From: Thermoplasmatales archaeon
Lineage (GTDB): Archaea; Thermoplasmatota; Thermoplasmata; Thermoplasmatales; GCA-001856825
DNA: 64,000 nt
Reading direction: 5' to 3'
Assembly: GCA_026127935.1 (NCBI GenBank)
Contig: JAJSLL010000005.1
Location: 29,809 to 93,808, forward strand
Made by a program: the position numbers and the translations under genes. Of this stretch, positions 15,172-62,019 are shown piece after piece (the stretch's first letter is position 1; each line of letters starts with the position of its first letter). The notes under the pieces are model-generated. The model was given only the letters and a program-made list of their open reading frames with translations. It did no database searches and was not told where the DNA came from.

Positions 15172-15912
15172 TCAAACTTTTACCACAGTACCTTGGATTC
15201 TTCCTCTTTCGATCTCCTCGATATTTACTCCCTTGGGGAAGAATTTTGACTCCTTTATGCTGCTTGATATGACTCCACTCCAATTGCTTTCACTCAAAAG
15301 AAACAGTTTTTCGTATTCCGTATAGTCCTTTCCTGGAGCTACATCTGAATGGTATATCACGTGCGTGGCATTTGTTTCCCTTTCTGTGGCAACGACATAG
15401 ATGTTGGCCCCTCCTTTTATGTATCCGTTCTCTTTTGATATATCAAGGGCCGCTCTGACCCTATCTTCTATAGATCCATTCTGGGTCATCACTAGCTTCA
15501 AGAATGTTTCAGTATCGTTCATATTCTTAACTGACTCCAGACCCAGAGTCTTGTTCATCCCAAACTTGTCAAACCATCCATTATGGGATATGTAAACATC
15601 GTATCTTTCGTCCTGCAAATGAAATGGATGCGCATTTAATACACCCATCCCTTCGCTTGGAGCAGCCAATCGAACGTGAATGATCGCAACTCCGTTCTCG
15701 ACTTTTGGGGTTGGCACCCGAAGGGTTAAAGGAGTTCCATAACGTTTCAGTTCTAAACCTTCTTTATACAAGTTCAGAAGACCCCATCCATCTCTGTGAG
15801 AAACTGGTTTTTTCTTGGCAAGGGGATCGTCTTCAGCGACATCAGCCAGAGATCTGAAAATAGATTCAAACTCAGGGGTGAATTCTCCCCAAAGTAACAC
15901 CATCCTACACAT
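15172..15912 (-). CDS. Class II glutamine amidotransferase-like Ntn amidohydrolase (YafJ-like)
   Basis: The start is trimmed to the internal ATG at 15912, so the protein begins MCRMVLLWGEF. Cys2 after Met is the class II GATase nucleophile arrangement. HRDGWG and NAHPF blocks are present. Confidence 0.6.
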   Translation of the reverse strand: MCRMVLLWGEFTPEFESIFRSLADVAEDDPLAKKKPVSHRDGWGLLNLYKEGLELKRYGTPLTLRVPTPKVENGVAIIHVRLAAPSEGMGVLNAHPFHLQDERYDVYISHNGWFDKFGMNKTLGLESVKNMNDTETFLKLVMTQNGSIEDRVRAALDISKENGYIKGGANIYVVATERETNATHVIYHSDVAPGKDYTEYEKLFLLSESNWSGVISSSIKESKFFPKGVNIEEIERGRIQGTVVKV

Positions 15913-16020
15913 AGAGTGGCATAGCAAGTTATGTAAATACCTTTCTTGCGTCACGGCTACCCAACTCGACAAAAAAGTCTACAAGGAATACCTAAAATAA
16001 TAATAGTTAATCATTACCTT

Positions 16021-17283
16021 GTGAATTATCTAAATTTTTTCGAAGTAAATAACAATTCCTTGTACTTGGACAATAGGAGTTTGCCCGATCTAGCAAAGAA
16101 ATATGGTACACCTATCATAGTCTATTCAAAAAGGAAAATAGTAGAAAATGTACAAAAGATATTGACTGCGTTTGGAGTCGACATCATTTCGATCCACTTT
16201 TCCGTAAAGTCGAATTACAATCCTGCAATTTTGAGGATTCTCAAGGAATTAGGAGTAGGTATAGATGCAGCTAATCTTAATGAGGTTGAACTTGCCATAA
16301 AGGTTGGCATCTCCCCAGAAAAAATAATAGCAACTCCAAATAATCTTTCTAAGAAAGAACTCGAGGCAATTTCGGAGAAAGGAGTGAAGATAAACTTTGA
16401 TGACATCAATCAAATGAAACTTATCAAAGATCACCTACCAAAAGTCGTATCGTACAGAATAAATCCAGGAATAGGAAAAGGAGAATTTGAAGGAATAGTA
16501 ACGGGGGGGAAAGGAAGCAAATTCGGAATGCCTGCAGATGCAGCCGTCAAAGCCTACAGAGCTGCAAAGGATAATGGATGCAAGGAATTTGGAATTCACA
16601 TGATGACTGGGTCGAATGTTCTTGATCCATCATTTTTCAAGGAGTCTTCAAAGTTGTTCTTTTCAATAGCAGAAAGGATTTCAAAGGATGTAGGAATAGA
16701 ATTTGAATTTCTGGATCTCGGTGGGAGCTTGGGAGTTCCATACCGTCAGAACGAAGAAGAACTCGATATAAAGGCTGTTGCAAAGAATATCCTTACCAAT
16801 TTCAAGGAAAGTCAATCCAGGGGATTCTTTAAACAAAGCAGGCTGATAGTAGAACCAGGTCGTTTCATAATTGCAAATGCAGCTGTTCTCCTTTCAACAG
16901 TAACGAATATCAAAGAATATGACGAGATCATAGTGGGCACCGATGCAAGTATGAACTCCCTCATTCGGATACCTTTGTACGGAGCCGTACATCCGTTAAT
17001 CGTCGCCAACAGGGCTACGGAAGAGTTGGTGATAACGGGAAAAGTAACTGGACAAGTTTGTGAGAATACTGACGTGATGTTCAAGTCAATCCAACTCCCA
17101 AGAGTAAATGTTGGAGACACTATTGCGATTTTGAACGCCGGGGCATATGTGACGTCTATGTCATCAAACTATAATTTGTTGAAACGACCAACTGAATTGT
17201 TGCTTGATGGTCAGAAGGAGGCAATAATAAAGAGAGAAGAAACGTTAGATGATATGCTTGTCACTTTCGTAATTCCACCTTGA
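16021..17283 (+). CDS. lysA: Diaminopimelate decarboxylase-like PLP enzyme (Orn/DAP/Arg decarboxylase family 2)
   Basis: YGTPIIVY, PLP-lysine block HFSVKSNYN, LGGSLGVPY, EPGRFIIANA, CENTD and GAYVTSMSSNYN. The start is set at GTG 16021, about 25 nt downstream of an aaaataataata box. Substrate is not provable from sequence. Confidence 0.6.
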   Translation: MNYLNFFEVNNNSLYLDNRSLPDLAKKYGTPIIVYSKRKIVENVQKILTAFGVDIISIHFSVKSNYNPAILRILKELGVGIDAANLNEVELAIKVGISPEKIIATPNNLSKKELEAISEKGVKINFDDINQMKLIKDHLPKVVSYRINPGIGKGEFEGIVTGGKGSKFGMPADAAVKAYRAAKDNGCKEFGIHMMTGSNVLDPSFFKESSKLFFSIAERISKDVGIEFEFLDLGGSLGVPYRQNEEELDIKAVAKNILTNFKESQSRGFFKQSRLIVEPGRFIIANAAVLLSTVTNIKEYDEIIVGTDASMNSLIRIPLYGAVHPLIVANRATEELVITGKVTGQVCENTDVMFKSIQLPRVNVGDTIAILNAGAYVTSMSSNYNLLKRPTELLLDGQKEAIIKREETLDDMLVTFVIPP

Positions 17284-17308
17284 GCGTCTCATCCATCCAT
17301 TCACATCT

Positions 17309-18415
17309 TTAGTTACCCCGTCCATTTTTTCTATTTTTTTCGATCTTATGAATCATCTCCGTAAGAGTATCATCAAGCACATCGCGTGCATCTTTTCCCT
17401 TTTTCTCAGTGTTGTTCAACATTATGCTGAAAGTCACATTCAGTTTTTTTATGATCCCACTAAGGGTCGCTACACCCGTAAGAGAACCAGTCTTGGCTTT
17501 GATGCCATAATCACTGAACTCATCGAGTCTTTTCTTAAGCGTCCCGTAGCCGGGTGAAGCCATCTGTTCTATGAACTTTCCGTTTTCAATCGAGAGAGCT
17601 TTTCTGAGTAGATCGGAAATGAAGGAAGGAGTCAACTTGTTAAAGGAGGAGAGACCTGACCCATCAACTATCGTCAAATTCGGCTCCAACAGGTTCATCC
17701 TTTCCAATGACTTCCTCGTCACAGATGAACCACCCCTCCAACTTCCAAGTAGACCGACCTTGTAGTGGTGAACGAATTTGAATAAAACGTCCGCAGAAAA
17801 ATTACAACTAATTGGTTCCAAATGTTCCAGTATGTCTCCGACCTTTTCTTTGTGTGTATAGATCAATTTTCCATCATTGGAGTCTGTGAAGTCGAACAGG
17901 GGGAATATGTCCCTTTCACCCTCCGAAACAAGTGTTCTGGAGAGGGTGTCATATGGACGAATGTCTGTTATCTTTCTTCCAGAGTGAGGTTCGACCTCGT
18001 TCTTGTAATTTTCAGTTTCACTTCTCGGTATGCAGTTTTCATTTAATGAGAAAGAGGTAATCCTAGACTGATAGCACTCTCTCTGATCCTCTGAGGGCCA
18101 TCCAGGGGCATAATAGTCCTCGTCAAAACTCCTGTTGAACAGGACACGCTTAATCTTGTAGTCTTTCAGTCTCTCAATTATTCTCTCTATTTCTCCGATC
18201 CTAAGTAAAGGTGTGGGTCCGCCAGTTATTATCAAGTCATTTTCTGAAACTCTAAAATAAGTCTTTATCTCAAAATCGTCGCCAAGGATTACCGAGCTAA
18301 CAAATCCAGTCACTATCTTCATGTTTGAAGCAGGTATCATAGCTCGGTGAGGTGATGCAGAGTACAGGAGGCTCCCTCTCTTGTCCTTGAATACGTACGA
18401 AAGTATTTCACTCAT
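17309..18415 (-). CDS. PBP4-like D-Ala-D-Ala carboxypeptidase/endopeptidase (peptidase S13), no signal peptide
   Basis: 368 aa with all three penicillin-binding motifs: S-x-x-K (PASNMK), DGSGLS...N, and K-T-G (KAKTGSLTG). The N-terminus MSEILSYVFKDKRG is hydrophilic. Confidence 0.7.
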   Translation of the reverse strand: MSEILSYVFKDKRGSLLYSASPHRAMIPASNMKIVTGFVSSVILGDDFEIKTYFRVSENDLIITGGPTPLLRIGEIERIIERLKDYKIKRVLFNRSFDEDYYAPGWPSEDQRECYQSRITSFSLNENCIPRSETENYKNEVEPHSGRKITDIRPYDTLSRTLVSEGERDIFPLFDFTDSNDGKLIYTHKEKVGDILEHLEPISCNFSADVLFKFVHHYKVGLLGSWRGGSSVTRKSLERMNLLEPNLTIVDGSGLSSFNKLTPSFISDLLRKALSIENGKFIEQMASPGYGTLKKRLDEFSDYGIKAKTGSLTGVATLSGIIKKLNVTFSIMLNNTEKKGKDARDVLDDTLTEMIHKIEKNRKNGRGN

Positions 18416-18462
18416 TTTAAAACCGATACGGTGGAGATTAATATCTCTTCTTGAGCAATGGC

Positions 18463-19527
18463 TTAGAATCCTTTTATCAGATTCACTCCGAGACCAGGTC
18501 CATCCTGGAGGTAGTTCTTTCCGTTCTTAAAGACGAGTCCACCGGTGACGATGTCCTCCTTGAGGCTCGAAAATCCATCCAGATCAGTGTACTTGACTGC
18601 AGGGTACGAAAGGCCGATGTGTAATCCAGCGGTGTTGGCAAGTCTAGTCTCTACCATACACCCAATCATAACCGGAATTCTGAAAGACTGACACGTCTTT
18701 ATGATGGCAATTCCGTCAGTTATGCCCCCGGATTTCATGAGCTTCAAATTGATCATGTCAGCTGCTTCGTTCTGTATAACTCTGACTGCATCCTGTGGGG
18801 ATTTGACTGCTTCGTCCGCCATCACGGGTATCGTCGTATGGTCCTTCACGAATCTGAGTGCCTTCACATCATCTGCCGGAACTGGTTGCTCTAGGAATTC
18901 GATATTGAATCTCGATATCTTTTCTGAGAGTGCAATCGCCTTCTTTGCAGTGTAAGATTGATTGAAGTCCACATACAACTGCTTGTCGTCGCCTATTGTC
19001 TTCCTCACTTTTTCCACTCTTGAATAATCTTTCTCGATTCCAGAACCAAGTTTGATCTTGAAAACTGTAACTCCCTCATTCAATAACTCAACTGCCTGTT
19101 TTGCTGCAATTTCAGGCTCCACAAGATCAACGGTGTAGCTTGTCTCAGCATCAGGTCTGTAGTTTCCCAGGATGGAGTGAATCGGTAGATTAGCTTTTTT
19201 ACCAATGATGTCCCAGATAGCCATATCGACTGCAGCCCTGCTTGATTTAGAATCTCTGGCCAGTGAAATCATTTTTTCGTTAATTCTCTCAGGGCTGATG
19301 TCGAGGCCTATTAGTTTCTTTGAGAAAATGTTCAGTTCATTTTCGACTGAACCCATAGAATCACCCATTATGTGCGGAGTTGGTACAGCTTCGCCAATGC
19401 CTTCGTATCCATCCTTTGTCTTGACTCTTACGATATATCCTTCATAAACATCCGTACTTCCAATAGCAATGACGAAGGGTTTTTTCATTGCTATCTCGAT
19501 CTTCTTGTATTCAATTGAGGAGATCAT
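18463..19527 (-). CDS. Dipeptide epimerase (L-Ala-D/L-Glu epimerase-like, enolase superfamily MR/MLE)
   Basis: FKIKLG (K-x-K), DFNQ, EQP and MADE metal/acid-base blocks, about 355 aa. The start is trimmed to ATG 19527 (MISSIEYKKIEIAMKKPF). Confidence 0.65.
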   Translation of the reverse strand: MISSIEYKKIEIAMKKPFVIAIGSTDVYEGYIVRVKTKDGYEGIGEAVPTPHIMGDSMGSVENELNIFSKKLIGLDISPERINEKMISLARDSKSSRAAVDMAIWDIIGKKANLPIHSILGNYRPDAETSYTVDLVEPEIAAKQAVELLNEGVTVFKIKLGSGIEKDYSRVEKVRKTIGDDKQLYVDFNQSYTAKKAIALSEKISRFNIEFLEQPVPADDVKALRFVKDHTTIPVMADEAVKSPQDAVRVIQNEAADMINLKLMKSGGITDGIAIIKTCQSFRIPVMIGCMVETRLANTAGLHIGLSYPAVKYTDLDGFSSLKEDIVTGGLVFKNGKNYLQDGPGLGVNLIKGF

Positions 19528-19614
19528 GCTCAGGAATGCTTTCCGGATAATTAAGTTCAGCATAGAGAATTTGATTTTACTATTAAATTAAATAACAGTA
19601 CCGAATGTTTGATT

Positions 19615-21021
19615 ATGAGGACAGGCTTGTTCTTGCAGACTGGTATATATGGGATGGACAGGGTCCGTTCGAGGAATATTATCAACAAGATCAAACCCGG
19701 CTCGATAATCTTGATGGGAAGAGACTTCACGGGATTAGATTCAATAAGAGAGCTAATCAAATGGATTTTTGAGATATATGACAAAGAATTAAAAATTGCG
19801 AGACCTTTGATCGCAATCGATCAAGAGGGTGGGAATGTTGTCAGAATTCGAGATCTGGATTATTTGCCAAGTAACTACGCTCTCGGAGTTTTGGGCAGTA
19901 AAGCTGTTTCCAGATACTCAGGCATGCTAACCGGTTACCAATTATATTCACTCGGGATTGAATGGAATCTCGCACCTGTTCTAGATACATTTTCTAATCA
20001 CGACAATCCTATAGTGATGGAGAGATCATTCGGATCAGATCCTGATTTAGTTTCCGACTTAGGAGATAGCTACATAGAGGGAATTCAGTCTGCTGGTGTT
20101 TCAGCCACTGCGAAACACTTTCCAGGCCACGGATTTGTAAAAGAAGATTCACACCTTAAGCTGCCAGTAGACTCGAGAGATGAGGAGTCTGTCATGGAAA
20201 GCAGCAAACCATTTTCGAGAGCAATTCGTGCAGGAGTGAAGAGCATTATGGTGTCCCACGTTAAGTTTGATAAACTAGATTCAGATTTTCCTGCCTCACT
20301 TTCTAAAAACATAATCAGCCGTCTTAGAAACGACCTGAATTTTAAAAGTGTCATAATCACAGATTCATTGGATATGAAAGCAATAACGTCCAACTATTCC
20401 GCATCAGAGTTTACAAAACTGGCATATAGTGCAGGGGCAGACGTTCTCGAGTGCGTTGATCCAGAATTGGCCCTAGAAGTGTACGATTCCCTAGAAAGTG
20501 TTGCCAGGGGAGGCGCACAAGATAGGTCCAGAAGAATTGAAAATCTGAGGTCTCATGCTGTTGGAACTTTTAAACCTCCAAGTGAGATTATGAACTGGAT
20601 CTCAGTCCAAGCTGTGAGATGGTTAAGAAAGAAGAATTTGAGGGCAGACAGAAGACTTGCAATAGTTCCACTGAGATCAAGCGGTGACGTTAAAGATTGG
20701 CCCTACAATATGTATAACAACATATGCAGTCACTTGACGAGCTTGGGAATTGAGTGTCACGTCAAGTATATCGATGACGAATGGAATTTTTCGAACGAAG
20801 AAATAATATTCTTTGGAAAGAACCTCCATCTAAATGGTAATTGGAAGAGAATTAACCAATTAGCAAAAAACAACAACTGCTGCTTTGTCTCCGTTGGCAT
20901 TCCTAACGATAGGGAACTAATTGATACACAGGTGGGGTACATTGCCTCATATAGTGAAAAATATGAAAGTATCATTACTGCAGTCTACTCCATACTTGGT
21001 CTGTATGAGCCCCCCATGTGA
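19615..21021 (+). CDS. nagZ: Beta-N-acetylhexosaminidase (GH3, NagZ-like), no signal peptide
   Basis: IAIDQEGGNVVRI and KHFPGHG are GH3 NagZ hallmarks. An extra C-terminal domain of about 130 aa is present. Confidence 0.75.
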   Translation: MRTGLFLQTGIYGMDRVRSRNIINKIKPGSIILMGRDFTGLDSIRELIKWIFEIYDKELKIARPLIAIDQEGGNVVRIRDLDYLPSNYALGVLGSKAVSRYSGMLTGYQLYSLGIEWNLAPVLDTFSNHDNPIVMERSFGSDPDLVSDLGDSYIEGIQSAGVSATAKHFPGHGFVKEDSHLKLPVDSRDEESVMESSKPFSRAIRAGVKSIMVSHVKFDKLDSDFPASLSKNIISRLRNDLNFKSVIITDSLDMKAITSNYSASEFTKLAYSAGADVLECVDPELALEVYDSLESVARGGAQDRSRRIENLRSHAVGTFKPPSEIMNWISVQAVRWLRKKNLRADRRLAIVPLRSSGDVKDWPYNMYNNICSHLTSLGIECHVKYIDDEWNFSNEEIIFFGKNLHLNGNWKRINQLAKNNNCCFVSVGIPNDRELIDTQVGYIASYSEKYESIITAVYSILGLYEPPM

Positions 21022-21053
21022 ATGGAAAGGTAAGAATGGTTAATCGCACATGA

Positions 21054-22070
21054 TCATAACAGAAGATATTCCCTTCTGTCTTCAATGTTCAAATTAACGA
21101 TGAATTTTGTCAGTTGATTCCTAAGGGAATTTATTTCGTCGTCTCCTATTTTGAAACCCAAAGAGATGGATCTCATAACTATGGAACCAATGATCGCTTC
21201 GTAGCCGTACAGTGGGACCTTATACTTCCTCTTGCCTATATTGTCATCTATTCTTTTCTTTATCAGGTTCCAGTACCATTCCCCTGCCCGCAATACACCC
21301 CCATATCCGCTAATCGCAATATCTTCTGGTTTACCCAGTCTTCTATATAGAGATATTGCTGCGTTGGCAGTTTCCGCAGATGCATCGTTCATTATTTCCT
21401 TAGCTACAACATCTCCTTCAGCAGCAAAGCCAGAAACAAACTTAGCGAGGAGGGCTATTCCCCTAATATCGAATTTGGACTTGTGTATTATATTTATTAA
21501 GTCTCTGTCTGCAGAAAGGCCATAATAATTCCTGACAAATTCTTTAAATTTAGGAGATCTCTCGTCCCTCCCGTCCATGGACTTGGTAGTTTCCCTGAGA
21601 GCCTTCATTCCTATGTTGAAAGCACTCCCTTCATCGTCAAGAAACCAACCCCACCCAGAGGACCTCTCCTTTTTGCCATTGTACATTCCGTATGCAACCA
21701 TTCCAGTTCCAGGTGCCACTACGATCCCTTTACCTTCTGGAAATCTTGAATAAAATCCAGCTTCTCCGTCATTGTAATACGATATTTTTGAATTAGGTAT
21801 GATCTTATTCAGAATTGTCATAATTTTGTCCGAGGACTTTTTGGAATCCTTCATCCCCGCCAAAGCAAATGTGTACTCATCTATCCTATTCACATGTGCA
21901 TTCTCTTCTGCTTTTTTAATGGCGGTGAGCATATTGCGTTTGAATGTCGAAATGCCTACGTTCCTGAAATTGGTTGAACCGGATACTCCTACGCCTAGTA
22001 TTGTTCTGTCCTCGTTATAAACTACCGCTATGGTTTTGGTTGCACCACCATCTACGGATAGAATTTCCAC
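21054..22070 (-). CDS. BadF/BadG/BcrA/BcrD-type sugar kinase (GlcNAc / MurNAc kinase, MurK-like)
   Basis: 338 aa. N-terminal SVDGGATKT phosphate-1 motif and a VAPGTGMV block. This is the same family as eukaryotic-type GlcNAc kinase and clostridial MurK. Confidence 0.6.
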   Translation of the reverse strand: MEILSVDGGATKTIAVVYNEDRTILGVGVSGSTNFRNVGISTFKRNMLTAIKKAEENAHVNRIDEYTFALAGMKDSKKSSDKIMTILNKIIPNSKISYYNDGEAGFYSRFPEGKGIVVAPGTGMVAYGMYNGKKERSSGWGWFLDDEGSAFNIGMKALRETTKSMDGRDERSPKFKEFVRNYYGLSADRDLINIIHKSKFDIRGIALLAKFVSGFAAEGDVVAKEIMNDASAETANAAISLYRRLGKPEDIAISGYGGVLRAGEWYWNLIKKRIDDNIGKRKYKVPLYGYEAIIGSIVMRSISLGFKIGDDEINSLRNQLTKFIVNLNIEDRREYLLL

Positions 22071-22105
22071 TTACCCACATAGGATGCTGATTCTAATCCT
22101 TTTAG

Positions 22106-22120
22106 AATGTTTAAAGCATT
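22106..22120. promoter_or_regulatory. Imperfect palindrome AATGTTTAAAGCATT in the divergent kinase/namZ intergenic region
   Basis: Seen by eye. The central TTTAAA could simply be a TATA box. Related half-sites (aatgcttt, aatgttt) occur at 19535-19542 and 19604-19610. Confidence 0.2.
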
Positions 22121-22166
22121 TCCGGTCATCTAATCGTTCTTCGATTCTCCAAAAGACTTTAGTGTC

Positions 22167-27457: not shown

Positions 27458-27463
27458 AGTAAA

Positions 27464-28429: not shown

Positions 28430-28438
28430 GGTCTTACA

Positions 28439-31540: not shown

Positions 31541-32369
31541 TTCTCTCTAGTTGTCTCACCGTTTTTTCTAGATTGTACGCGTTTTCTTCTAGCATTCCCT
31601 TAGCCGCTGCCTCAGAGAGTCCGAATCTTTCACTTATCATGCGGGCGGCCCTCAGTTTAAGTTTCTTGTTGAAGGATGCCTTCATGTGAAACATCCGGTT
31701 CCCATAGGTCCTACCAAGTTTGATAGCTATTGTAGTGCTTATTATATTCAGGACCATTTTCTGAGATGTTGCTGCCTTCATCCTGGTAGATCCTTGGATC
31801 ACCTCTGGACCTGAATTGAGGAAAATGACAATCTCGGCCACTTTTTTAAGGGGTGATTCACTGGAATTCACTATTGCGGCAGTAAAACAGCCTCTTGCTT
31901 TGGCTTCTCTCAGCGCGGCTACCACGAATGGAGTGCGTCCGGAGGCGGTTATTCCGATGACACAATCTCTATCAGTCAACTTTTTTTTATTTAATTCTCT
32001 GACTGCGGATTCTCCGGAGTCCTCCGCACCTTCAATAGATTTAGTCAACGCTATTTTCCCACCAGCTATGAGATAGTCGAACGTCTCCCTACCCAGTCCA
32101 TAGGTTGGCCACATCTCAATCGCGTCTTGTGCTCCTATTCTACCGCTAGTTCCAGAACCAACGTATATGACTCTTCCTCCGGACTTAACACAATCAAGTG
32201 CACGTTGTATTACCTTGGACACTTTTGTGACTGACTTCCCGACACTACTGTAGGCTCTGAAATCTTCAGAATGTATTTTCTCAACTATGGCCCCAATACT
32301 CATGGCCGAAATGAGCTTGGTGTTGGAGTTGACTTTCTCTGTATCCGGGATGCTTTTATTTACTCGCAT
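31527..32369 (-). CDS. murQ: N-acetylmuramic acid 6-phosphate etherase MurQ
   Basis: 280 aa SIS protein. GRVIYVGSGTSGRIGAQDA, IEGAEDS, ASGRTPF and GSTRMKAATSQKMVLN parallel E. coli MurQ blocks (GRLIYLGAGTSGRLGVLDA, VEGAEDS, ASGRTPY, GSTRLKSGTAQKMVLN). Confidence 0.85.
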   Translation of the reverse strand: MRVNKSIPDTEKVNSNTKLISAMSIGAIVEKIHSEDFRAYSSVGKSVTKVSKVIQRALDCVKSGGRVIYVGSGTSGRIGAQDAIEMWPTYGLGRETFDYLIAGGKIALTKSIEGAEDSGESAVRELNKKKLTDRDCVIGITASGRTPFVVAALREAKARGCFTAAIVNSSESPLKKVAEIVIFLNSGPEVIQGSTRMKAATSQKMVLNIISTTIAIKLGRTYGNRMFHMKASFNKKLKLRAARMISERFGLSEAAAKGMLEENAYNLEKTVRQLERIRKR

Positions 32370-32402
32370 CTTGCTATAAATGCGTATAGAATATTATAAC
32401 TT

Positions 32403-33539
32403 TCAGAACTCGACGAGCTTTCCACGTTTGATTACTCCCTTGACTTTCAGCGTCTTGTCCAAAATAGTTATGTCTGCTTTGTTGCCTTTTCTTATCAATC
32501 CCAAATCTCTTCTTTTCAAAACTTTGGATGGGTTGGTTGAAGCCATCTTCGAAATCGCTTTAAGTCCAATACCTATGGAATTTAGATTTCGTACCGCTTT
32601 ATCCAGGGTCAAAACGCTTCCAGCAAGAGTATCAGTATCAACAAGGGTACATCTTTCTCCCTGCTTCTTGACACTCAGAGTACCAAGTTTGTAAATTCCA
32701 TCCGGTTTTCCAGTTGCGTGAATTGAATCAGAGACTAAAATCAACTTCTCAGATCCTTTATTTACTATTGCCATCCTAATAGCCTCTGGAGAAACGTGCA
32801 CAAAATCACAAATAATTTCTGCATAGATCCTGTTTTCTAGAAATGCAAAATCAATCAAGCCCGGTACTCTATGATTGAATGCCCTCATAGCGTTATACAT
32901 ATGAGTTATCAATCTTGCGCCATTATTAAACCCCATTTGAGCTGTCTCATAATCGCAGTTAGTGTGTCCGATAGAAGGCATTATTCCTGCCTCATATAAG
33001 TCTCTGATCATCACTTGAGCACCTTTCAACTCAGGAGCGATATCTAGAATTCTCAGTACATTACCGCGATGCAGTAGTTCAAGTTTGTAATCGCCATCGG
33101 AAGGTCTTTTCAAAAGAGTCGCATCATGAGCCCCCTTTTTTTCGGGACTGATGTACGGTCCTTCCAATCTTGCACCAAGTATTTCGGCCCCTGACTCCTC
33201 TCCCATAGTTCTGGAAACTGTATTCAGAAATCTCCTTGTCCTGCCTTCAGGGGCGGAAACAAGCGTTGGAACGAATCCTGTGGTTCCCCTCTCTAACAAA
33301 TTTGCACTCCACTCTTTCAAGCTTTGCTTGTTCAGTTCATACGAATCTATCCCGTCTATCCCGTGTGTGTGGATGTCTATGAACCCAGGAACCGCTATTC
33401 TATCTCTAAAGTCAAAATAATTAGAATGTCTGCCTCCTATCCGCTGGATTGTGTCACCACTTATCTCCAGTGACTTTTCTGCTAGGGTCTTTTCATGGGT
33501 ATAAATGAGGGAGAATCTGTAAGAGTCAGTCAGTTCCAA
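32403..33539 (-). CDS. nagA: N-acetylglucosamine-6-phosphate deacetylase NagA
   Basis: 378 aa amidohydrolase. Contains PGFIDIHTHG, GHTNC and THMYNAM blocks. Confidence 0.75.
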   Translation of the reverse strand: MELTDSYRFSLIYTHEKTLAEKSLEISGDTIQRIGGRHSNYFDFRDRIAVPGFIDIHTHGIDGIDSYELNKQSLKEWSANLLERGTTGFVPTLVSAPEGRTRRFLNTVSRTMGEESGAEILGARLEGPYISPEKKGAHDATLLKRPSDGDYKLELLHRGNVLRILDIAPELKGAQVMIRDLYEAGIMPSIGHTNCDYETAQMGFNNGARLITHMYNAMRAFNHRVPGLIDFAFLENRIYAEIICDFVHVSPEAIRMAIVNKGSEKLILVSDSIHATGKPDGIYKLGTLSVKKQGERCTLVDTDTLAGSVLTLDKAVRNLNSIGIGLKAISKMASTNPSKVLKRRDLGLIRKGNKADITILDKTLKVKGVIKRGKLVEF

Positions 33540-33600
33540 TTCTAATCCACCACGAACTTCCCATTTCTGCTAAGTTGTTAGATTGCACACCTATCCACAC

Positions 33601-34752
33601 TCACTTTTTCCTCCTAACGTACAAAGTTGCGGCAGCCGCAACCACGAGTGTACTTCCGATGGCTATGTATAAAATCGTCGACCCTATCGATTCTAATGTA
33701 CTTCCAGCTGAAAACGTCACAGTCTCCTCTACGGAACCAATTGAACCTGTCGCTACAACCTCGATCCTATAGTTCCCCGTGTCTGGGGTATAATTGAAGA
33801 ATTGACCGGTAGACATCTGCTTTCCGTTGACGAGCCATTTGTAAGAGTAGTTTCCCTGTCCTACTCCATTAGGAAATGATCCTATGAATGTCAACTTCTC
33901 TCCGCTTTTCACTTTCGTTAAGTTATTTGTAATGTTCTGATAATTGTTCAGTACGGAGATTCTGATGCTTGGGTCTACGAATGTTGGAATGTGAATATAC
34001 AAAGAAGTGACATTTTTTCCAAGGTAGGTTAACATTCCATAGAAAGAAATATTTGAGTCCACAGCGGGGCTGTAGTTCCACATCCCGTGCGGATCTGTCT
34101 GCACAACTTCTCCATTTCCTATGTAGAGCATAGCGTGACCATTGCCAGCACCTCCATCTACTATCACGTCTCCAGGAGAAAGGAAATACGAAGGGAACAT
34201 AGAATAGTTGAACACGTAAAAGACAGAAGCGTGTGGTGTGCCGGTATAAGAGGCAGGTATTGGCTGATAACCGATAGTTTGTTCATCTGTAGAGTTTACC
34301 GGGAATACTGGAAGATCGTAACCAGCAAGCCAATCTGCAAGCCTGTATACCCCTACTATGCCGTAGCTGCCAGGGAATCCACTGAAGTACGTGGTGAGAT
34401 TATCACCAGGAGGATTGTTCGCCAAGATGGTGAGGCCACCCGCAATAAGTGACTCTGAAACAAAGTGGGCACAATCTTCGGATCCAAATTGATCTAGATT
34501 CTTTTGCATTACAGACTCGTTTATCCCAGATGGATAGTATTTCGTGTGCGCATAATCCTTGAATATCAGCATGCCATAATCAACTGCCGCAGTCTGGTTG
34601 TAATAACCTGAAGATGTCGCTGAAAGAGGATTTTCAGAGAATCCGCTGCTGGTTGTGTGAAATCCCGACCCAATATGTGTGCCACCAATAGAAACTGTGA
34701 CCACAAAGAGAAAGGTGATCATGACAATAAGCCAGACTCTTCTCATACGCAA
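33601..34752 (-). CDS. Surface-anchored papain-fold amidase/peptidase (Amidase_6 / NlpC-P60-like) with PKD-like domain
   Basis: 383 aa. N-terminal signal/anchor, Cys block GSEDCAHFVSESLIAGG, His block GNGHAMLYIGNG, an Ig/PKD-like repeat (GEKLTFIGSF...YSYKWLVNGK...YTPDTGNYRIEV), and a C-terminal TM helix plus RRKK. Confidence 0.5.
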   Translation of the reverse strand: MRMRRVWLIVMITFLFVVTVSIGGTHIGSGFHTTSSGFSENPLSATSSGYYNQTAAVDYGMLIFKDYAHTKYYPSGINESVMQKNLDQFGSEDCAHFVSESLIAGGLTILANNPPGDNLTTYFSGFPGSYGIVGVYRLADWLAGYDLPVFPVNSTDEQTIGYQPIPASYTGTPHASVFYVFNYSMFPSYFLSPGDVIVDGGAGNGHAMLYIGNGEVVQTDPHGMWNYSPAVDSNISFYGMLTYLGKNVTSLYIHIPTFVDPSIRISVLNNYQNITNNLTKVKSGEKLTFIGSFPNGVGQGNYSYKWLVNGKQMSTGQFFNYTPDTGNYRIEVVATGSIGSVEETVTFSAGSTLESIGSTILYIAIGSTLVVAAAATLYVRRKK

Positions 34753-34895
34753 ATTATAGGTTTCTGAGTTAAATAATTAATCACTCCCACCAACAGGTCT
34801 AACGTTGCTTTGGAGTCCACTATTTATAAGGTGGTTAATCCACTCTTAGGAATGACATCAAAAGATTATTGAATCGTCCCTGATTTAAGTTTCCG

Positions 34896-36287
34896 ATGGA
34901 CATTAAGTCTGATCTCAAGAAAATTTCAGGAGAAAATATCCTCACCTCACAAGAAGAATTGATTCCTTATGTGAGGGACGCGTCCCCTTTTCACGGAGAA
35001 CCACCACTTGCAGTGGCAATTCCTGAAAACGTAACGGAATTATCTCGTATTGTAAAATACTGTTATGAACACGACATTTTGATGGTTTCTAGGGGAGGCG
35101 GGTCGTCACTTACAGGTTCTTCGGTTCCGTTAGGTGAAGGGATCGTCATCAGTCTCGCAAAGTTTGATAAGATATTGGAAACAAAAATTGAAGACAGATA
35201 TGTAGTGGCAGAATCAGGAGTGAGGTTGGACGCACTGAATGAACATCTTTCCAATTTTGATCACTTCTATCCCCCAGATCCTGCGAGTTCAAGGATATGC
35301 ACAGTTGGAGGGACTATTTCAACAAACGCCGGTGGGCTCAGAGGAGCTATGTATGGTGTAACCAAGGACTGGGTCCTAGGAATGGAGGTGGTTCTTCCTA
35401 ACGGAGAGATAGTTCAGTTTGGCAGCAAGACCCTGAAGAGGAGTGCAGGATATGATTTCACCTCCCTTATGATAGGCAGCGAAGGTACCATTGGAATAAT
35501 CACAAAAGCAATCTTGAAGATTTGGCCGAAACCTGAGAAGACGGGAAGGATCCTCTCTTACTATGAGAAAATTGAAAGTGGAGGAAAAGCGCTTGCTGGA
35601 CTGAAGGCCAAGGGTATCAACCCGTTGATTGCAGAATTTATGGACAGGATTTCGTTAGAGTCCATGAGAGTAGCTAAGGGAATAGGGTACCCAGAAAGAA
35701 CAAACTACATGCTTATGATTGACATAGCCTCTACCGCAGAATCCCTAGAAAGACAAATGAATGATGCTGCGGAAATTCTAAAGGAGTTCAATCCGATTTC
35801 TCTCAAGCTCACGACCGATAAGAGGGAAATGAGTGAAATGTACGAGGCCAGAAAGGGACTGTACTCTACCCTGCTCTCTCAAAGAAAATCTGCTTCTGAG
35901 TACCTGATTCTCGGAGATGTTGTAGTACCTGCTTCCGAGCTTCCTGCCGCCCTGAATGAAATCGAACGAGCCATCAAGAAGCACGGGATATTCGTTTCAA
36001 TCTTCGGGCATATTGGGGATGGCAATATTCACGCCAACATTTTCTCAGATCCAGATGACGTGGAAAATATGAGAAGAGTAGACAACTTTCAAATGGAGTT
36101 AGGGAGGATCGCGCTTAGTCACGGTGGAAGCGTATCTGCGGAACACGGGGTTGGAATCGAAAAAAAGGAATTGTTGAAGGAAGAGTTCACGATGAGAAAC
36201 TCACCCGGAACTTTGAGCTTGATGAAGGCGGTAAAACTGGCTATTGACCCAAAGAATCTTATGAACAGGGGAAAGATATTTGACTGA
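34896..36287 (+). CDS. FAD-linked oxidase (GlcD / D-lactate dehydrogenase family)
   Basis: 463 aa. FAD_binding_4 blocks (VSRGGGSSLTGSSVP) and C-terminal GGSVSAEHGVGIEK. Confidence 0.75.
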   Translation: MDIKSDLKKISGENILTSQEELIPYVRDASPFHGEPPLAVAIPENVTELSRIVKYCYEHDILMVSRGGGSSLTGSSVPLGEGIVISLAKFDKILETKIEDRYVVAESGVRLDALNEHLSNFDHFYPPDPASSRICTVGGTISTNAGGLRGAMYGVTKDWVLGMEVVLPNGEIVQFGSKTLKRSAGYDFTSLMIGSEGTIGIITKAILKIWPKPEKTGRILSYYEKIESGGKALAGLKAKGINPLIAEFMDRISLESMRVAKGIGYPERTNYMLMIDIASTAESLERQMNDAAEILKEFNPISLKLTTDKREMSEMYEARKGLYSTLLSQRKSASEYLILGDVVVPASELPAALNEIERAIKKHGIFVSIFGHIGDGNIHANIFSDPDDVENMRRVDNFQMELGRIALSHGGSVSAEHGVGIEKKELLKEEFTMRNSPGTLSLMKAVKLAIDPKNLMNRGKIFD

Positions 36288-37530
36288 CGAAATCCAAACT
36301 CTTGAAGAACTTTCAAAGGAGGCAGGGAAATGCACAAACTGTGGATTCTGTGAATCCGTCTGTCCAACACTTCCTGCCATGGGATATAATTTAATTTACG
36401 GTGCAAGGGGGAGGGTCGACCTTGGAAACTATATCTTGAAAGAATTACTGAAGAATGGTAAGTTGAGCCTTAGATTCAAGGACTCGTTTTACAGTTGCCT
36501 TAGCTGTAACGCATGTCTTCAAGTATGTCCTGCTGGAGTCAATGCAGGGAAGGTAAGTGAACTGTCAAGAAGACTTATAGCAGATTACGATTCTTTCACC
36601 ACAGAAAACGAACAGAAAACTGCGAAGATGATAGTTAATGTCACGATGAAATACATGAACCCACTCGGGGTAAGGGAGAAGTGTGCGAACTGGTCAAGAG
36701 ACATCGCATTCGATAGCAAATCAAAGTCCCTCTTCTACACTGGAAACATGTTTCAACTGATGCCTTATAGCATTTCGCTAGGAAAAATGAAGAAGAAAAT
36801 AGGGAAGAAAATTTCTGATAGAATCTCAGAATTCATTTCAAATCATCCTTCATTCATCAAGATTGTTGGTATGTCAGCTGACAGAGACTTAAGTGACCGT
36901 ATGCGTGAGGAACTCCGAAACATCGTGAGACTCTTAAAAGATTCCGGTATCTCTTTTTCCTATTTGGGCGAGGACGAACCATACCCCGGTACGTTTCTAT
37001 ATGACTTGGGATATGAGAAGGAATTTTCAGAATATGCAAACAGGGTCTATTCTCTATTCAAATCTAAAGGAATTGAGGAACTAATTGTATTGGACCCTCA
37101 CACTTATGATATTCTGAGTTCAAAATATCCAAAATATGTTAAGAACTTCGACCTGCAGGTCGTGTATTATCTGGACTTACTCGACATTTCAAAATTCAAC
37201 AGGACTAACGTCAAAACAACTATCCACGAACCGTGTCTTCTGGTGAGAGGAAGCAAGGAAAACAATTCTCCAGTTGAAATCCTGTCAAAACTGTCTGATC
37301 TAGAACTACCAAATAGAAACGGGAAAAATACGAATTGTTGCGGCGGTCCTGACGAATTATTGTATGGGGAAATAGCAGAAAGGGTGGCCGAAGAACGGTT
37401 TACTCAGCTAGAAAGAGTAAAAGCTCAGAAGATTGTCACCGCTTGCCCGGTGTGTTTCGCCAATCTCAACAAGAAGAGTAATGTGGTCGAATTGCCAGAC
37501 TTTCTCACCACAATCTCAGGAGAAAAGTAA
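36280..37530 (+). CDS. Fe-S oxidoreductase (GlcF-like, 2x[4Fe-4S] + CCG domains)
   Basis: CTNCGFCESVCP and CLSCNACLQVCP ferredoxin motifs, a C-terminal CCGGP motif and ACPVCF. It overlaps the upstream oxidase gene by 8 nt. Confidence 0.7.
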   Translation: MTDEIQTLEELSKEAGKCTNCGFCESVCPTLPAMGYNLIYGARGRVDLGNYILKELLKNGKLSLRFKDSFYSCLSCNACLQVCPAGVNAGKVSELSRRLIADYDSFTTENEQKTAKMIVNVTMKYMNPLGVREKCANWSRDIAFDSKSKSLFYTGNMFQLMPYSISLGKMKKKIGKKISDRISEFISNHPSFIKIVGMSADRDLSDRMREELRNIVRLLKDSGISFSYLGEDEPYPGTFLYDLGYEKEFSEYANRVYSLFKSKGIEELIVLDPHTYDILSSKYPKYVKNFDLQVVYYLDLLDISKFNRTNVKTTIHEPCLLVRGSKENNSPVEILSKLSDLELPNRNGKNTNCCGGPDELLYGEIAERVAEERFTQLERVKAQKIVTACPVCFANLNKKSNVVELPDFLTTISGEK

Positions 37531-37587
37531 AACATCTCGTGTCAAAACGAGCGCAATATTTTTTAGAAACCTCTCGATTGAACTGCA

Positions 37588-38277
37588 ATGCTGATGATCA
37601 TAACAAGCGTAGCAGATATCTGGACAAAACCGTCTACCGACTCAGAAAGAGATTCTCAAGTGATCTATGGAGAGAAGGTTGAAGCCTTGGAAAACTTGGG
37701 ACAGTTCTCTAAAGTCAAGAGTGTGGATGGGGTTGTAGGTTACGTTAAGAGCGCCATATTGGACGACTGGACCAAAAGGCATTTCAAGTTGTCCCATCAG
37801 GTCAGAAACGATAGGATGTCTTTTCCATTCGGTTCCTATGTAAGCAATAAAGACGTAGAAAAATACAACATTCCAAAGAGATATCTACATTCTATCGAAG
37901 AGAGATTCGTTCCTATTAGACTTACAAGAAAATTTGCAGGCATTCCATATCTCTGGGGCGGTACATCTGATTTTGGATTTGACTGCTCCGGTTTCACCCA
38001 GAGGCTTTTCCGTTTCTCAGGAACGGAGATTCCAAGAAATTCTGATCAGCAGAAAGATGCTTCAGAGACAGTCAAGAATTTCGACTTTGCTCTTCCCGGA
38101 GATTTGGTATTTTTCAAGGGCCATGTCGCATTCTATCTCGGACACGGTAGGATTATCCATGCAAATGGAAAGCATTCTAGAATTACTGAAACGGATCTTT
38201 TTGATAAGTCTCCATATTCGCAAGAACTGTTAAGAATTATGGAGAAAATTGGAAGATTCAAGATTGAATCCAACTGA
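37588..38277 (+). CDS. Cytoplasmic SH3b + NlpC/P60 cysteine peptidase (YkfC-like gamma-D-Glu-diamino acid endopeptidase candidate)
   Basis: 229 aa, no signal peptide. N-terminal SH3-like segment, catalytic block IPYLWGGTSDFGFDCSGFTQ, and His block GHVAFYLGHGRIIHA. Confidence 0.7.
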   Translation: MLMIITSVADIWTKPSTDSERDSQVIYGEKVEALENLGQFSKVKSVDGVVGYVKSAILDDWTKRHFKLSHQVRNDRMSFPFGSYVSNKDVEKYNIPKRYLHSIEERFVPIRLTRKFAGIPYLWGGTSDFGFDCSGFTQRLFRFSGTEIPRNSDQQKDASETVKNFDFALPGDLVFFKGHVAFYLGHGRIIHANGKHSRITETDLFDKSPYSQELLRIMEKIGRFKIESN

Positions 38278-38295
38278 ACGTCTATCAAAAGGTTT

Positions 38296-39249
38296 TTAAT
38301 TCTTCTTAGATCTCTTTGCGAAGTAATAAATGAGAACTAGCACAACTGCGAAAATCAAGAGTAATGCCAGCACGTAGTTATAAATCATTTTTCCAGTATT
38401 TTCTCCATGTAAGAATTGTGAAAGATCTGTCCACCAGTAACCGTTTAACGGCATGTCCCAAATTCCCACGTTGGTTGCATTATAATATTCAAGATACTTG
38501 AACCTAGATCCAACCGAAGAACTGTTCAAAACTGAGTTGTTGTTCACATTCACTGTAATCAATCCAATTCCAATTTTGCTAAGGGATATTTGGGAGATTC
38601 CGTTCTGAAAAGCAATTCCATAGTTTATTGCGGGTGAATCATAGGTATCCATATCATAGAGAATATTGACAGTGGTGTTGTTGAGATATTGAAAATTCCA
38701 GAAAGTATTCCACGAAGCAATGTCAACAGTGAGTTCGAAACCACTCGAGTGGAGGGCTTTCGCGAAAGATGTCAGAAACTGAGAATATTCAAGAGCTATC
38801 GTATCGTTAGCACTCTGGGTTGGTTCGAAATCAATATTGTAGCCAGTGTAATCAAATTCTTCTGCTTGTTGTATAGCTTCTGTGATGAATCTTGAAGGAT
38901 GGTTAAGAAGAAAGATTATGTCATTTAGGTTGTCACTAATTATCATCGGGAAAGTGTTGAGGCCGAAAGATTGGATTTTCCCCGTAACATTTGTTATAGG
39001 AAATAGTGCAATCATGTCCCCAGTAGAGTCTACCATATAGTGCTCGTACGAAACTCCTGTCAAGTCTGATCGATGAATACTGAGACTCGACAAATCCACG
39101 GTTATGTTTTCATTGGTCAGCTCAAGTCCCATCCAAACTATTGCAGACTTCTTTCCAGTCTCTTGCCCGTTCGTACCGTTTACTACATATAACGCAGCGG
39201 AAAGGAGAAGAAGGATGACAAAAATCGACACGACTATCCTTATCTGCAT
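38296..39249 (-). CDS. Surface-anchored TIM-barrel glycoside-hydrolase-like protein (GH18-like)
   Basis: 317 aa. N-terminal signal/anchor, many N-glycosylation sequons, and a C-terminal TM helix plus KRSKKN. FDYTGYNIDFEP resembles the GH18 catalytic strand (D-G-x-D-x-D-x-E) with only the last D-x-E retained. This is a weak call. Confidence 0.35.
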   Translation of the reverse strand: MQIRIVVSIFVILLLLSAALYVVNGTNGQETGKKSAIVWMGLELTNENITVDLSSLSIHRSDLTGVSYEHYMVDSTGDMIALFPITNVTGKIQSFGLNTFPMIISDNLNDIIFLLNHPSRFITEAIQQAEEFDYTGYNIDFEPTQSANDTIALEYSQFLTSFAKALHSSGFELTVDIASWNTFWNFQYLNNTTVNILYDMDTYDSPAINYGIAFQNGISQISLSKIGIGLITVNVNNNSVLNSSSVGSRFKYLEYYNATNVGIWDMPLNGYWWTDLSQFLHGENTGKMIYNYVLALLLIFAVVLVLIYYFAKRSKKN

Positions 39250-62014: not shown

Positions 62015-62019
62015 CTAGG

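Follow-up and report, generated by a model that had tools for sequence, protein, structure and literature searches.

An archaeal gene island that probably serves the catabolism of bacterial peptidoglycan

Why would an archaeon from a group without a cell wall carry, packed side by side, genes of the kind that bacteria use to take peptidoglycan apart? The question is raised by a stretch of 64,000 nucleotides from a Thermoplasmatales archaeon (assembly GCA_026127935.1, contig JAJSLL010000005.1, positions 29,809–93,808, forward strand), referred to below as the window, in which positions 15172–39249 hold 21 contiguous, closely packed open reading frames (ORFs) on alternating strands, referred to below as the island. 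Peptidoglycan (murein) is among the largest pools of bacterial necromass, and the recycling of its sugars and D-amino acids is usually credited to bacteria. An earlier sequence-only reading had seen here about 22 genes forming a nearly complete route for murein breakdown. We find every ORF at or close to the position given there, our recount is 21, and profile scans bear out nearly all of the family names, gene by gene. The observation is thereby confirmed, and it extends well beyond the window. The best-supported reading, which we hold with considerable confidence, is that the island would serve the catabolism of bacterial peptidoglycan as food in a cell-wall-less Thermoplasmata archaeon. What is new here is the probable occurrence in Archaea, and with another layout, of a type of murein recycling and catabolism known from bacteria.

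The genes of the island are as follows. Family calls are from Pfam and NCBIfam profile scans against curated cut-offs, and paired values are the bit score versus the cut-off of the curated model.

15172–15912, reverse: Ntn/class-II glutamine-amidotransferase-like amidohydrolase, cytoplasmic, 246 residues (GATase_6, 27.8 vs 27)
16021–17283, forward: LysA, diaminopimelate decarboxylase, converting meso-diaminopimelate (meso-DAP) to L-lysine (TIGR01048, 337 vs 298)
17309–18415, reverse: S13/PBP4-type DD-carboxypeptidase/endopeptidase, leaderless, 368 residues (Peptidase_S13, E 1e-40; TIGR00666, 111.2 vs 107.8)
18463–19527, reverse: enolase-superfamily dipeptide epimerase (best PDB match 3jva of Enterococcus faecalis, E 6e-65; 1jpm/1tkk, Bacillus subtilis YkfB, E 3e-62)
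19609–21021, forward: GH3 beta-N-acetylglucosaminidase, NagZ-like, leaderless (Glyco_hydro_3, E 2e-60, 206 bits)
21054–22070, reverse: BadF/BcrAD-type sugar kinase (BcrAD_BadFG, E 9e-38)
22167–23402, forward: NamZ (GH171/DUF1343) exo-beta-N-acetylmuramidase, leaderless (NamZ_N, E 6e-67; NamZ_C, E 3e-50)
23478–25322, reverse: family-5 (Opp/Dpp-type) solute-binding protein, surface-anchored (SBP_bac_5, E 2e-50; 22 N-glycosylation sequons)
25563–29416, forward: OppB, OppC, OppD and OppF, two permeases and two ATPases (BPD_transp_1, OppC_N, ABC_tran, oligo_HPY)
29400–30296, forward: GNAT acetyltransferase whose N-terminal half has no family match (Acetyltransf_1, Acetyltransf_7)
30464–31540, forward: beta-lactamase-fold serine hydrolase of YfeW/PBP4B/AmiE type, leaderless (Beta-lactamase, E 3e-42, 145 bits)
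31527–32369, reverse: MurQ, the etherase that splits N-acetylmuramic acid 6-phosphate (MurNAc-6-P) into N-acetylglucosamine 6-phosphate (GlcNAc-6-P) and D-lactate (NF003915, 304 vs 168)
32403–33539, reverse: NagA, GlcNAc-6-P deacetylase (TIGR00221, 268 vs 226)
33601–34752, reverse: orphan protein with a Cys/His catalytic-looking domain, an Ig/PKD-like domain and a C-terminal transmembrane anchor (Cys94 and His206 invariant; AlphaFold2 mean predicted local distance difference test, pLDDT, 80)
34896–37530, forward: GlcD-like FAD dehydrogenase and GlcF-like Fe-S/CCG subunit (FAD_binding_4, FAD-oxidase_C, Fer4_8, CCG)
37588–38277, forward: SH3b-NlpC/P60 endopeptidase, YkfC-like, leaderless (NLPC_P60, E 2e-22; SH3_16)
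38296–39249, reverse: GH18-fold glycosidase, surface-anchored (AlphaFold2 pLDDT 86; Foldseek search against the PDB)

MurQ also exceeds the cut-off of NF009222 (264 vs 255) and falls below that of the stricter TIGR00274 (242 vs 302). It aligns over its full length, as a SIS fold, with the solved structures 4s12, 4lzj and 1nri (E 1e-53 to 4e-51), and its catalytic motifs are kept, reading DAIEMWPTYG and IEGAED where the solved enzymes have DASECPPTFG and VEGAED. We take the catalytic glutamates of Escherichia coli MurQ to be Glu83 and Glu114, with DAxE and EGAED as the motifs that contain them. Scores for MurQ and NagA are at equivalog or subfamily level, and etherase function is what we predict for MurQ. 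Both domains of NamZ are far above their cut-offs (NamZ_N 225 vs 27 bits, NamZ_C 171 vs 25 bits), and its PDB matches are the DUF1343 crystal structures 4k05 and 4jja. NamZ has no hydrophobic N terminus (NamZ_N begins at residue 8), unlike the secreted NamZ of B. subtilis, from which it differs in location and not in family. The NagZ-like protein is slightly under the cut-off of NF003740 (185 vs 207) and contains the KHFPGHG motif. To our knowledge, MurQ and NamZ, as well as AnmK and MupG (which are encoded in related islands described below), have no known substrate beyond murein-derived sugars (NamZ, PMC8054146; MupG, PMC6262408). The MurQ, DUF1343 and beta-lactamase-fold ORFs, on whose family assignments the sequence-only reading depended, all fell in the families it had named and none in an unrelated one.

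The remaining sugar enzymes are less closely defined. The kinase matches 2e2n, a broad-range hexokinase of Sulfolobus tokodaii, best (E 1e-29), followed by the MurNAc/GlcNAc kinase 8zo3 (E 4e-24), and we propose that it is a MurNAc/GlcNAc 6-kinase that would stand in for MurP, the MurNAc transporter of the phosphotransferase system (PTS). The GlcD-like protein is below the cut-off of TIGR00387 (408 vs 568), i.e., it is no GlcD equivalog. By pathway logic alone, we propose the GlcD/GlcF-like pair as a D-lactate dehydrogenase for the by-product of MurQ. The pair is syntenic in one other lineage only, the FK1.bin53-type lineage described next.

Synteny in related Thermoplasmata had been suggested as a check. 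In the FK1.bin53/GCA_027373985 lineage (contig L005, about 65% identical), the gene order is identical and amino-acid identities are 49–81%. The order there is phosphoenolpyruvate carboxykinase (PEPCK), a C45-like hydrolase, LysA, S13, epimerase, NagZ, kinase, NamZ, binding protein, OppBCDF, GNAT, beta-lactamase fold, MurQ, NagA, orphan, GlcD, GlcF and P60, and only the Ntn and GH18 genes are missing. Other lineages were reached by tracing the orphan surface protein, and each trace ended in a rearranged island. Four or more additional Thermoplasmata lineages have the gene set in rearranged form, and some of them add AnmK, MupG or a SIS-type deaminase. The rearranged sets contain the following genes.

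CP009479 (L012), a closed 2.23-Mb genome: S13, MurQ, AnmK, SIS, beta-lactamase fold, kinase, NagA, NamZ, NagZ, orphan, DUF218, Opp, M20
JGI contig (L015): NagA, SIS, P60, AnmK, Opp, DUF218, orphan, S13, LysA, a second Opp, GH3
Thermoplasmataceae metagenome-assembled genome (MAG; L016): GH3, Ntn, epimerase, MurQ, NagA, SIS, beta-lactamase fold, kinase, M19 dipeptidase, orphan, S13, LysA, DUF218, Opp
GCA_027331205 (L014): GH18, GH3, orphan, Opp, MurQ, MupG
Aciduliprofundum sp. contig (L003): NagZ, kinase, PIG-L, SIS, MurQ, beta-lactamase fold

Because the order is conserved at 49–81% identity in one lineage and the set recurs rearranged in four more, we conclude that the arrangement of the island is not due to chance. 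AnmK acts on anhydro-MurNAc and MupG on MurNAc-6-P-GlcNAc, and their presence in the relatives adds a murein specificity that is absent from the window itself. The DUF218 protein (172–184 residues) is linked to the Opp genes in three of the rearranged islands (L012, L015 and L016) and is absent from the window.

Where the genes came from can be addressed for NamZ. The closest homologues of the window protein are Thermoplasmata copies (96%, 65% and 64% identical), and the next are bacterial at about 50% (Aminicenantes/Acidobacteriota and Clostridiales). The NamZ of the CP009479 island (L012/L013, 7301–8392) is only 31% identical to that of the window. Since NamZ copies from related islands are 31% alike while each is about 50% identical to bacterial ones, NamZ was probably gained independently more than once, or replaced, within these islands. 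We considered transfer of the whole island from a bacterial donor and rejected it, as neither the nearest bacterial NamZ (Saccharicenans) nor another close one (P0015) lies in a comparable island. The island looks as though it was assembled within archaea and not moved whole.

Next, there is the question of whether the DNA is archaeal at all. The window contains archaeal marker genes (a class I CCA-adding enzyme, an ArcS-like DUF5591-PUA protein and a Thermoplasmatales-type nucleoside kinase), and archaeal genes flank the island on both sides. The G+C fraction is 0.39–0.47 and even across the window, with no step at the island. Among species-representative genomes, the relatives of MurQ are in Thermoplasmata archaeon TL1-5.bin67 (95%), FK1.bin53 (63%, on a 498-kb contig) and Aciduliprofundum sp. 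(57%). A bacterial fragment fused to archaeal DNA during assembly or binning would gain some plausibility from the doubtful labels of certain contigs with NamZ or MurQ, such as a "Heimdallarchaeota" contig with sigma-70 and DnaK/J and short "Bathyarchaeia" and "Parvarchaeota" contigs. Such an artefact is, however, exceedingly improbable for the island: besides the archaeal flanks and uniform composition, the junctions running from PEPCK through the C45-like gene to LysA and beyond are repeated in independent assemblies, on contigs of 169 kb and 498 kb, the closed 2.23-Mb genome also carries an island, and three island proteins have the architecture of archaeal surface proteins (a C-terminal transmembrane anchor and dense sequons). 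We conclude that the contig is archaeal rather than chimeric; the possibility of a bacterial or chimeric contig, raised by the earlier reading against itself, was answered by Thermoplasmata MAG relatives, archaeal markers, uniform composition and independent assemblies. The "Candidatus Heimdallarchaeota" NamZ (contigs L009–L011) was considered as evidence for a second archaeal phylum and rejected, since its contig has sigma-70, DnaK/DnaJ and MerR and is almost certainly bacterial and mis-binned. Short contigs labeled "Bathyarchaeia" (3.3 kb) and "Parvarchaeota" (4 kb) carry MurQ, NagA, orphan protein or NamZ that are 73–90% identical, and these are probably mis-binned Thermoplasmata fragments.

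Where in the cell would murein be attacked? A hydropathy scan finds an N-terminal hydrophobic segment together with a C-terminal transmembrane anchor in exactly three island proteins, namely the binding protein, the orphan protein and the GH18-fold protein. These three have 2.8–3.6 sequons per 100 residues, as compared with at most 1.9 in the other island proteins. The other island enzymes have no transmembrane segment, and NagZ, NamZ, the beta-lactamase-fold protein, S13 and P60 have no hydrophobic segment whatever. The division into anchored surface proteins and leaderless enzymes that had been described from the ORFs is thus borne out.

For the GH18-fold protein, a model was built from an alignment of 21 homologues, and it has a (beta/alpha)8 pattern. 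The best Foldseek matches, all GH18 enzymes, are 5jh8 (E 7e-14), SleL 4s3j/4s3k (E 1e-12, TM-score 0.66) and YdhD 3cz8, with TM-scores of 0.65–0.66 at E 7e-14 to 1e-12; the 4s3j/4s3k SleL proteins are spore-cortex peptidoglycan N-acetylglucosaminidases. Its motif is TGYNIDFE, in which N138, D140 and E142 are invariant, and this N-x-D-F-E variant of the GH18 consensus DxxDxDxE is shared with 5jh8 and 4q6t. The window protein has no Pfam match, and one member of its family matches GH18 at 5e-5. The fold and its peptidoglycan-active closest relatives agree with the earlier GH18-like call, and we propose from the model that the protein is an endo-N-acetylglucosaminidase acting on the murein glycan. 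The gene is absent from the FK1.bin53-type island, and a remote homologue is the GH18 gene of the GCA_027331205 island. A gap of 19 bp separates the ends of the P60 and GH18 genes in the window (38277–38296); in a 95%-identical relative (L017, 6954–7717), the gap is about 760 bp and contains a 67-residue ORF, a difference due to a recent indel at the island's edge.

The second anchored candidate is the orphan protein, which had been called a papain-fold amidase with a PKD domain. Its Ig/PKD-like C-terminal domain is clear, and its papain fold is weakly supported: matches are sub-threshold, to Amidase_6 in 35 of 45 members (best 1.5e-4) and to NLPC_P60 in 30 of 45 (best 2.5e-3), and a profile search against the PDB gives E of about 0.09 to RipA. 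Of the two surface hydrolases proposed earlier, then, the GH18-like one stands by its fold, the papain-fold one stays below threshold, and neither ORF reached a family-level profile match. The orphan family comprises 87 clusters, all at least 46% identical, and the names attached to them are nearly all of Thermoplasmata type, with one probable mis-bin. When 1.84 billion representatives were scanned by HMMER with the orphan profile, we found one full-length cluster at 50% identity and no relative of the catalytic domain beyond it; the matches outside the family all fall on the Ig-like domain. In each of the six contexts that we examined, the orphan gene is part of a murein island. We suggest that it is probably a thiol-hydrolase surface protein, and we propose a peptidoglycan amidase or endopeptidase as its function.

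We now turn to the enzymes that would act on the stem peptide. In an alignment with E. coli PBP4 (2ex2), SxxK (as SNMK), SxN (as SCN) and KTG are all conserved in the S13 protein. The match consists of two stretches with a gap, and there is no transmembrane or signal segment, whereas a typical PBP4 is exported, has about 460–480 residues and contains the inserted domains II and III; the island S13 is, by prediction, a cytoplasmic short form. The LysA ORF opens at 15946 with a probable GTG start at 16021, and LysA adjoins the S13 gene in four lineages (the window, the FK1.bin53 type, the JGI contig and the Thermoplasmataceae MAG). Because this adjacency is kept in four lineages, LysA is probably part of the system, and the same adjacency, by itself, suggests a catabolic rather than a biosynthetic role. 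The epimerase, aligned to YkfB (1jpm) and 3jva, keeps KxK, the second lysine, the three metal ligands and DxD, and the start at 19527 given earlier is most likely correct. Among PDB entries, the P60 protein is closest to 3h41 ("NLP/P60 family protein"; E 3e-16), which we take to be B. cereus YkfC. The triad of the island protein, C133, H179 and H191, is invariant, and we propose that this protein is a gamma-D-Glu-diamino-acid endopeptidase.

The top curated model for the beta-lactamase-fold protein is PBP4B (YfeW) NF002968, at 131 vs 385, below the cut-off. It has SxxK (as SLTK) and HTG motifs and a distant PDB match to Pab87 (2qmi, E 3e-7). Its gene adjoins murQ in the window, in Aciduliprofundum sp. 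and in the FK1.bin53-type lineage, and it lies within the island, one to three genes from murQ, in CP009479 and the Thermoplasmataceae MAG. Of the earlier AmiE-like call, the beta-lactamase fold and serine motifs beside murQ stand; there is no equivalog score, and the amidase role is proposed from the fold and the adjacency to murQ. We therefore file the protein as one that works like AmiE/YfeW and not as a member of that group, and we propose that it is a MurNAc-L-Ala amidase or a D-peptidase. Two further enzymes are less easily placed. The first gene of the island starts at 15912 with MCRM (Met-Cys, an Ntn/class-II amidotransferase-like N terminus), and its product may act on a stem-peptide amide; a 35%-identical homologue is inside the Thermoplasmataceae MAG island, and none is in the FK1.bin53-type island. 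The GNAT ORF overlaps the oppF stop codon and has 49% identity to its counterpart in the FK1.bin53-type island.

Putting these parts in order, we propose a route by which bacterial murein would be used as food. Outside the cell, the anchored and probably N-glycosylated SleL-like GH18-fold glycosidase and the orphan Cys/His hydrolase would cut murein or large fragments of it to small muropeptides; for this step, fold, motifs and topology are observed and the substrate is conjectured. The anchored family-5 binding protein and OppBCDF, whose families are clear, would import the fragments as their presumed cargo. In the cytoplasm, NagZ and NamZ would remove GlcNAc and MurNAc from the non-reducing end, and the YfeW/AmiE-type hydrolase, if it has the supposed amidase activity, would release the stem peptide; for these enzymes, the families and the absence of leaders are observed. 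The BadF-type kinase, given the presumed sugar specificity, would yield MurNAc-6-P and GlcNAc-6-P, MurQ would turn MurNAc-6-P into GlcNAc-6-P and D-lactate, NagA would deacetylate GlcNAc-6-P, and the GlcD/GlcF-like dehydrogenase might oxidize the D-lactate. The S13 DD-peptidase, the YkfC-like gamma-D-Glu-DAP endopeptidase and the dipeptide epimerase would dismantle the stem peptide, leaving LysA to convert meso-DAP to lysine.

Several observations weigh against this reading of the island. The families named by the sequence-only reading are present, but the route is less complete than it claimed: within the window there is no GlcN-6-P deaminase, AnmK, MupG, LD-carboxypeptidase, M19/M20 dipeptidase or enzyme that oxidizes or racemizes D-Ala or D-Glu. 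Since a deaminase, a dipeptidase and D-Ala enzymes are lacking there, the pathway would depend on genes elsewhere in the genome, provided that such genes exist. The kinase is closest structurally to a broad-range archaeal hexokinase and not to MurK, and LysA could be a plain biosynthetic gene. The epimerase had been assigned to L-Ala-D/L-Glu; the dipeptide-epimerase subgroup holds, but Glu specificity is doubtful because Gly stands at the position of YkfB Arg24, a residue of the 20s loop that presumably binds the Glu side chain. Gly is also present in the E. faecalis enzyme 3jva, which we understand to prefer other dipeptides, and the score against NF041118 is below the cut-off (223 vs 500 bits); L-Ala-D/L-Glu is, from context, a likely but unproven substrate. 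Family-5 binding proteins carry peptides or sugars (oligosaccharides), so the cargo of the importer may be either. For the catalytic domain of the orphan, Foldseek searches of the PDB and BFVD return only Ig/PKD/FN3-like matches to the C-terminal domain, and a comparison with the island's own P60 protein by hhalign gives a probability of 2.5%, which is not significant. Neither the GH18 gene nor the putative D-lactate dehydrogenase pair is kept in all lineages. Finally, enrichment of 8-mers (one mismatch) in the divergent island promoters returns only AT-rich, TATA-like words and no shared operator. The palindrome TCCGGA, present upstream of three genes, was considered as an operator and rejected, with 17 copies in the window that are mostly within genes.

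What else could such an island do? It might only take up soluble muropeptides shed by growing bacteria (cross-feeding) and leave polymeric wall alone, its surface proteins being adhesins or enzymes for the cell's own glycoproteins. AnmK in CP009479 and the JGI contig fits this, as it suggests the use of anhydro-muropeptides, which Gram-negative bacteria produce by turnover, and so do the wholly cytoplasmic exo-enzymes, the unconfirmed fold of the Cys/His protein and the missing GH18 gene of the FK1.bin53-type island. The Cys/His surface protein, however, is confined to the island in six of six contexts and found nowhere else, the GH18 model is nearest to the peptidoglycan-cleaving SleL and YdhD, and the GCA_027331205 island has a second GH18 gene, and we regard uptake alone as unlikely, although with an appreciable chance of being correct. 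Alternatively, the surface hydrolases might chiefly be weapons that kill rival bacteria, as haloarchaeal peptidoglycan hydrolases are, with the catabolic genes a secondary clean-up. Killing of bacteria by archaeal peptidoglycan hydrolases is documented, and such enzymes abound in Thermoplasmatota (PMC12352652). Here, though, both hydrolases are tethered by a C-terminal transmembrane anchor and not released, they are embedded among at least 18 uptake and catabolic genes, and the conserved genes are mostly catabolic, which makes a chiefly hostile role improbable. The weapon and feeding readings are compatible with each other.

A broader diet is the other alternative, i.e., general scavenging of amino sugars and peptides (chitin oligomers, N-glycans and ordinary peptides) by MurQ-, NamZ- and S13-like proteins that have drifted to other substrates, archaea having no murein of their own. 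The authors of the MupG paper took archaeal MupG-like proteins to have another function (PMC6262408), MurQ is found in the Aciduliprofundum cluster alongside a PIG-L deacetylase and a SIS deaminase, in the manner of archaeal chitin pathways, and the kinase resembles a broad hexokinase. Drift of this kind is hard to reconcile with a MurQ that exceeds a curated cut-off and keeps both catalytic motifs, or with at least seven murein-specific families that stay together through rearrangements (MurQ, NamZ, S13, YkfC-like, epimerase and LysA, with AnmK and MupG in relatives), and chitinase, chitin-binding and chitobiose-specific genes are absent; we consider it quite improbable. Returning to the catabolism of bacterial peptidoglycan, we lean, with much more reserve, towards a bolder form of it, in which wall-less acidophilic Thermoplasmata would be dedicated murein consumers with the first complete archaeal pathway for MurNAc and stem peptides, built piecemeal from bacterial genes and fronted by a surface hydrolase family that is restricted to this group and has no detectable catalytic-domain relatives.

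How does the island compare with known systems? The closest parallels in B. subtilis are the murQ-murR-murP-amiE-nagZ-namZ operon, whose secreted NagZ, AmiE and NamZ jointly digest murein from the non-reducing end (PMC8054146), and the dpp/ykfABCD genes. As had been suggested, the families of these two operons meet in one locus: the island shares with them MurQ, NagZ, NamZ, an AmiE-type hydrolase, a YkfC-like P60 protein, a YkfB-like epimerase and a Dpp/Opp-type ATP-binding cassette (ABC) transporter. In B. subtilis, MurNAc enters by the PTS transporter MurP under the control of MurR, whereas the island has a kinase; as the earlier reading held, no PTS protein and no helix-turn-helix-SIS (RpiR/MurR) regulator is present among the 21 genes or the scanned flanks. 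Unlike the secreted NagZ, AmiE and NamZ of B. subtilis, the island counterparts are leaderless; all genes belong to one locus, with surface attack left to two unrelated anchored proteins in a host that has no murein. With Gram-negative recycling (AmpG, NagZ, AmpD, AnmK, MurQ, LdcA, MpaA and YcjG; E. coli murQP-yfeW), the island shares the logic of importing first and dismantling afterwards, a cytoplasmic NagZ and MurQ, a YfeW-type gene beside murQ and, in related archaeal islands, AnmK. It differs in using an Opp-type ABC transporter instead of AmpG, in having no AmpD, LdcA or Mpl, and in its aim, which would be the catabolism of foreign walls and not reuse. MurNAc scavenging in Tannerella forsythia and the MurK of Clostridium acetobutylicum (PMC5790795, PMC10465942) follow the same sequence of uptake, a BadF/BcrAD-type kinase and then MurQ, but both are murein-building bacteria, unlike the host of the island, and T. 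forsythia is a MurNAc auxotroph with MurT/AmpG permeases.

Among archaea, the idea of muropeptide consumption has already been put forward. Pab87 of Pyrococcus abyssi (CubicO), a cytoplasmic beta-lactamase-fold peptidase encoded beside a dipeptide ABC transporter, acts as a DD-carboxypeptidase that strips D-Ala from muropeptides, and the authors of its 2009 study suggested digestion of bacterial wall debris by vent archaea (PMC2651629). Pab87 stands alone as an enzyme, accompanied by a few peptide genes but by no MurQ, NamZ, NagZ or kinase, and it is the distant relative of the island hydrolase noted above. In a study of 2025, archaeal peptidoglycan hydrolases, acquired to act on bacterial walls, proved able to kill bacteria; Thermoplasmatota were prominent among the archaea that encode them, and whether scavenging or predation is served was left open (PMC12352652). 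Those hydrolases are secreted, single, toxin-like and shown to kill, whereas the putative hydrolases of the island are tethered and tied to a full uptake and catabolic route. The NamZ paper described a predominantly bacterial family (PMC8054146), and the assumption in the MupG paper that the archaeal homologues act otherwise was made on the ground that archaea have no murein (PMC6262408). The sequence-only reading knew of no characterized archaeal pathway of this kind, and in agreement with this we found no description of an archaeal MurQ, NamZ or MurNAc catabolism in open-access full text, although subscription journals or supplementary tables could hold an earlier mention.

If the island does what we propose, wall-less Thermoplasmata would be given a definite place in the food web, as organisms that scavenge bacteria or prey on them. 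The choice between scavenging and killing for archaeal peptidoglycan hydrolases (PMC12352652) would become testable with named genes and open to a direct genetic answer, and the assumption of other functions for archaeal homologues of murein-recycling proteins (PMC6262408) would be overturned. The leaderless short S13 peptidase and the orphan surface hydrolase would be new enzymes, perhaps acid-stable if the hosts are acidophiles, as we assume. The island would also be a clear example of a multi-gene pathway put together in one domain from parts of another. Its presence in a wall-less archaeon and, rearranged, in relatives bears on the question of whether any archaea use bacteria as food.

Some features lie just outside the island. 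Directly upstream are a GTP-dependent PEPCK gene (11866–13731, forward) and the following gene.

13819–15144, forward: C45/phospholipase-B-like Ntn hydrolase, cytoplasmic, possible accessory (NF040521, 114 vs 85; Phospholip_B, E 7e-13)

Both keep their positions in the FK1.bin53-type lineage (77% and 73%). The C45-like hydrolase has a GSC|TSF autoprocessing-type motif and borders the island in two lineages; that it is part of the island is possible and unproven. Just past the other end, a 135-residue ORF (39622–40029, forward) has a coiled-coil-like N terminus and, toward its C terminus, a sub-threshold match to the Pab87 octamerization domain (PF13969, E 2.2e-5, 25.1 vs 27 bits), and a 134-residue ORF is at the matching place in the close relative L017. 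Farther away, about 11 kb from the island and with no obvious link to it, is a gene for a TnpB-type RNA-guided endonuclease (2473–3720, reverse; NF040570, 338 bits), upstream of and overlapping which is a 140-residue ORF (3707–4129, reverse) that may be an IS200/IS605 transposase. Toward the end of the window, positions 55433–63983 hold a fatty-acid/acyl-CoA catabolism cluster (thiolase, three acyl-CoA dehydrogenase-like genes and an AMP-dependent ligase), which fits a scavenging heterotroph.

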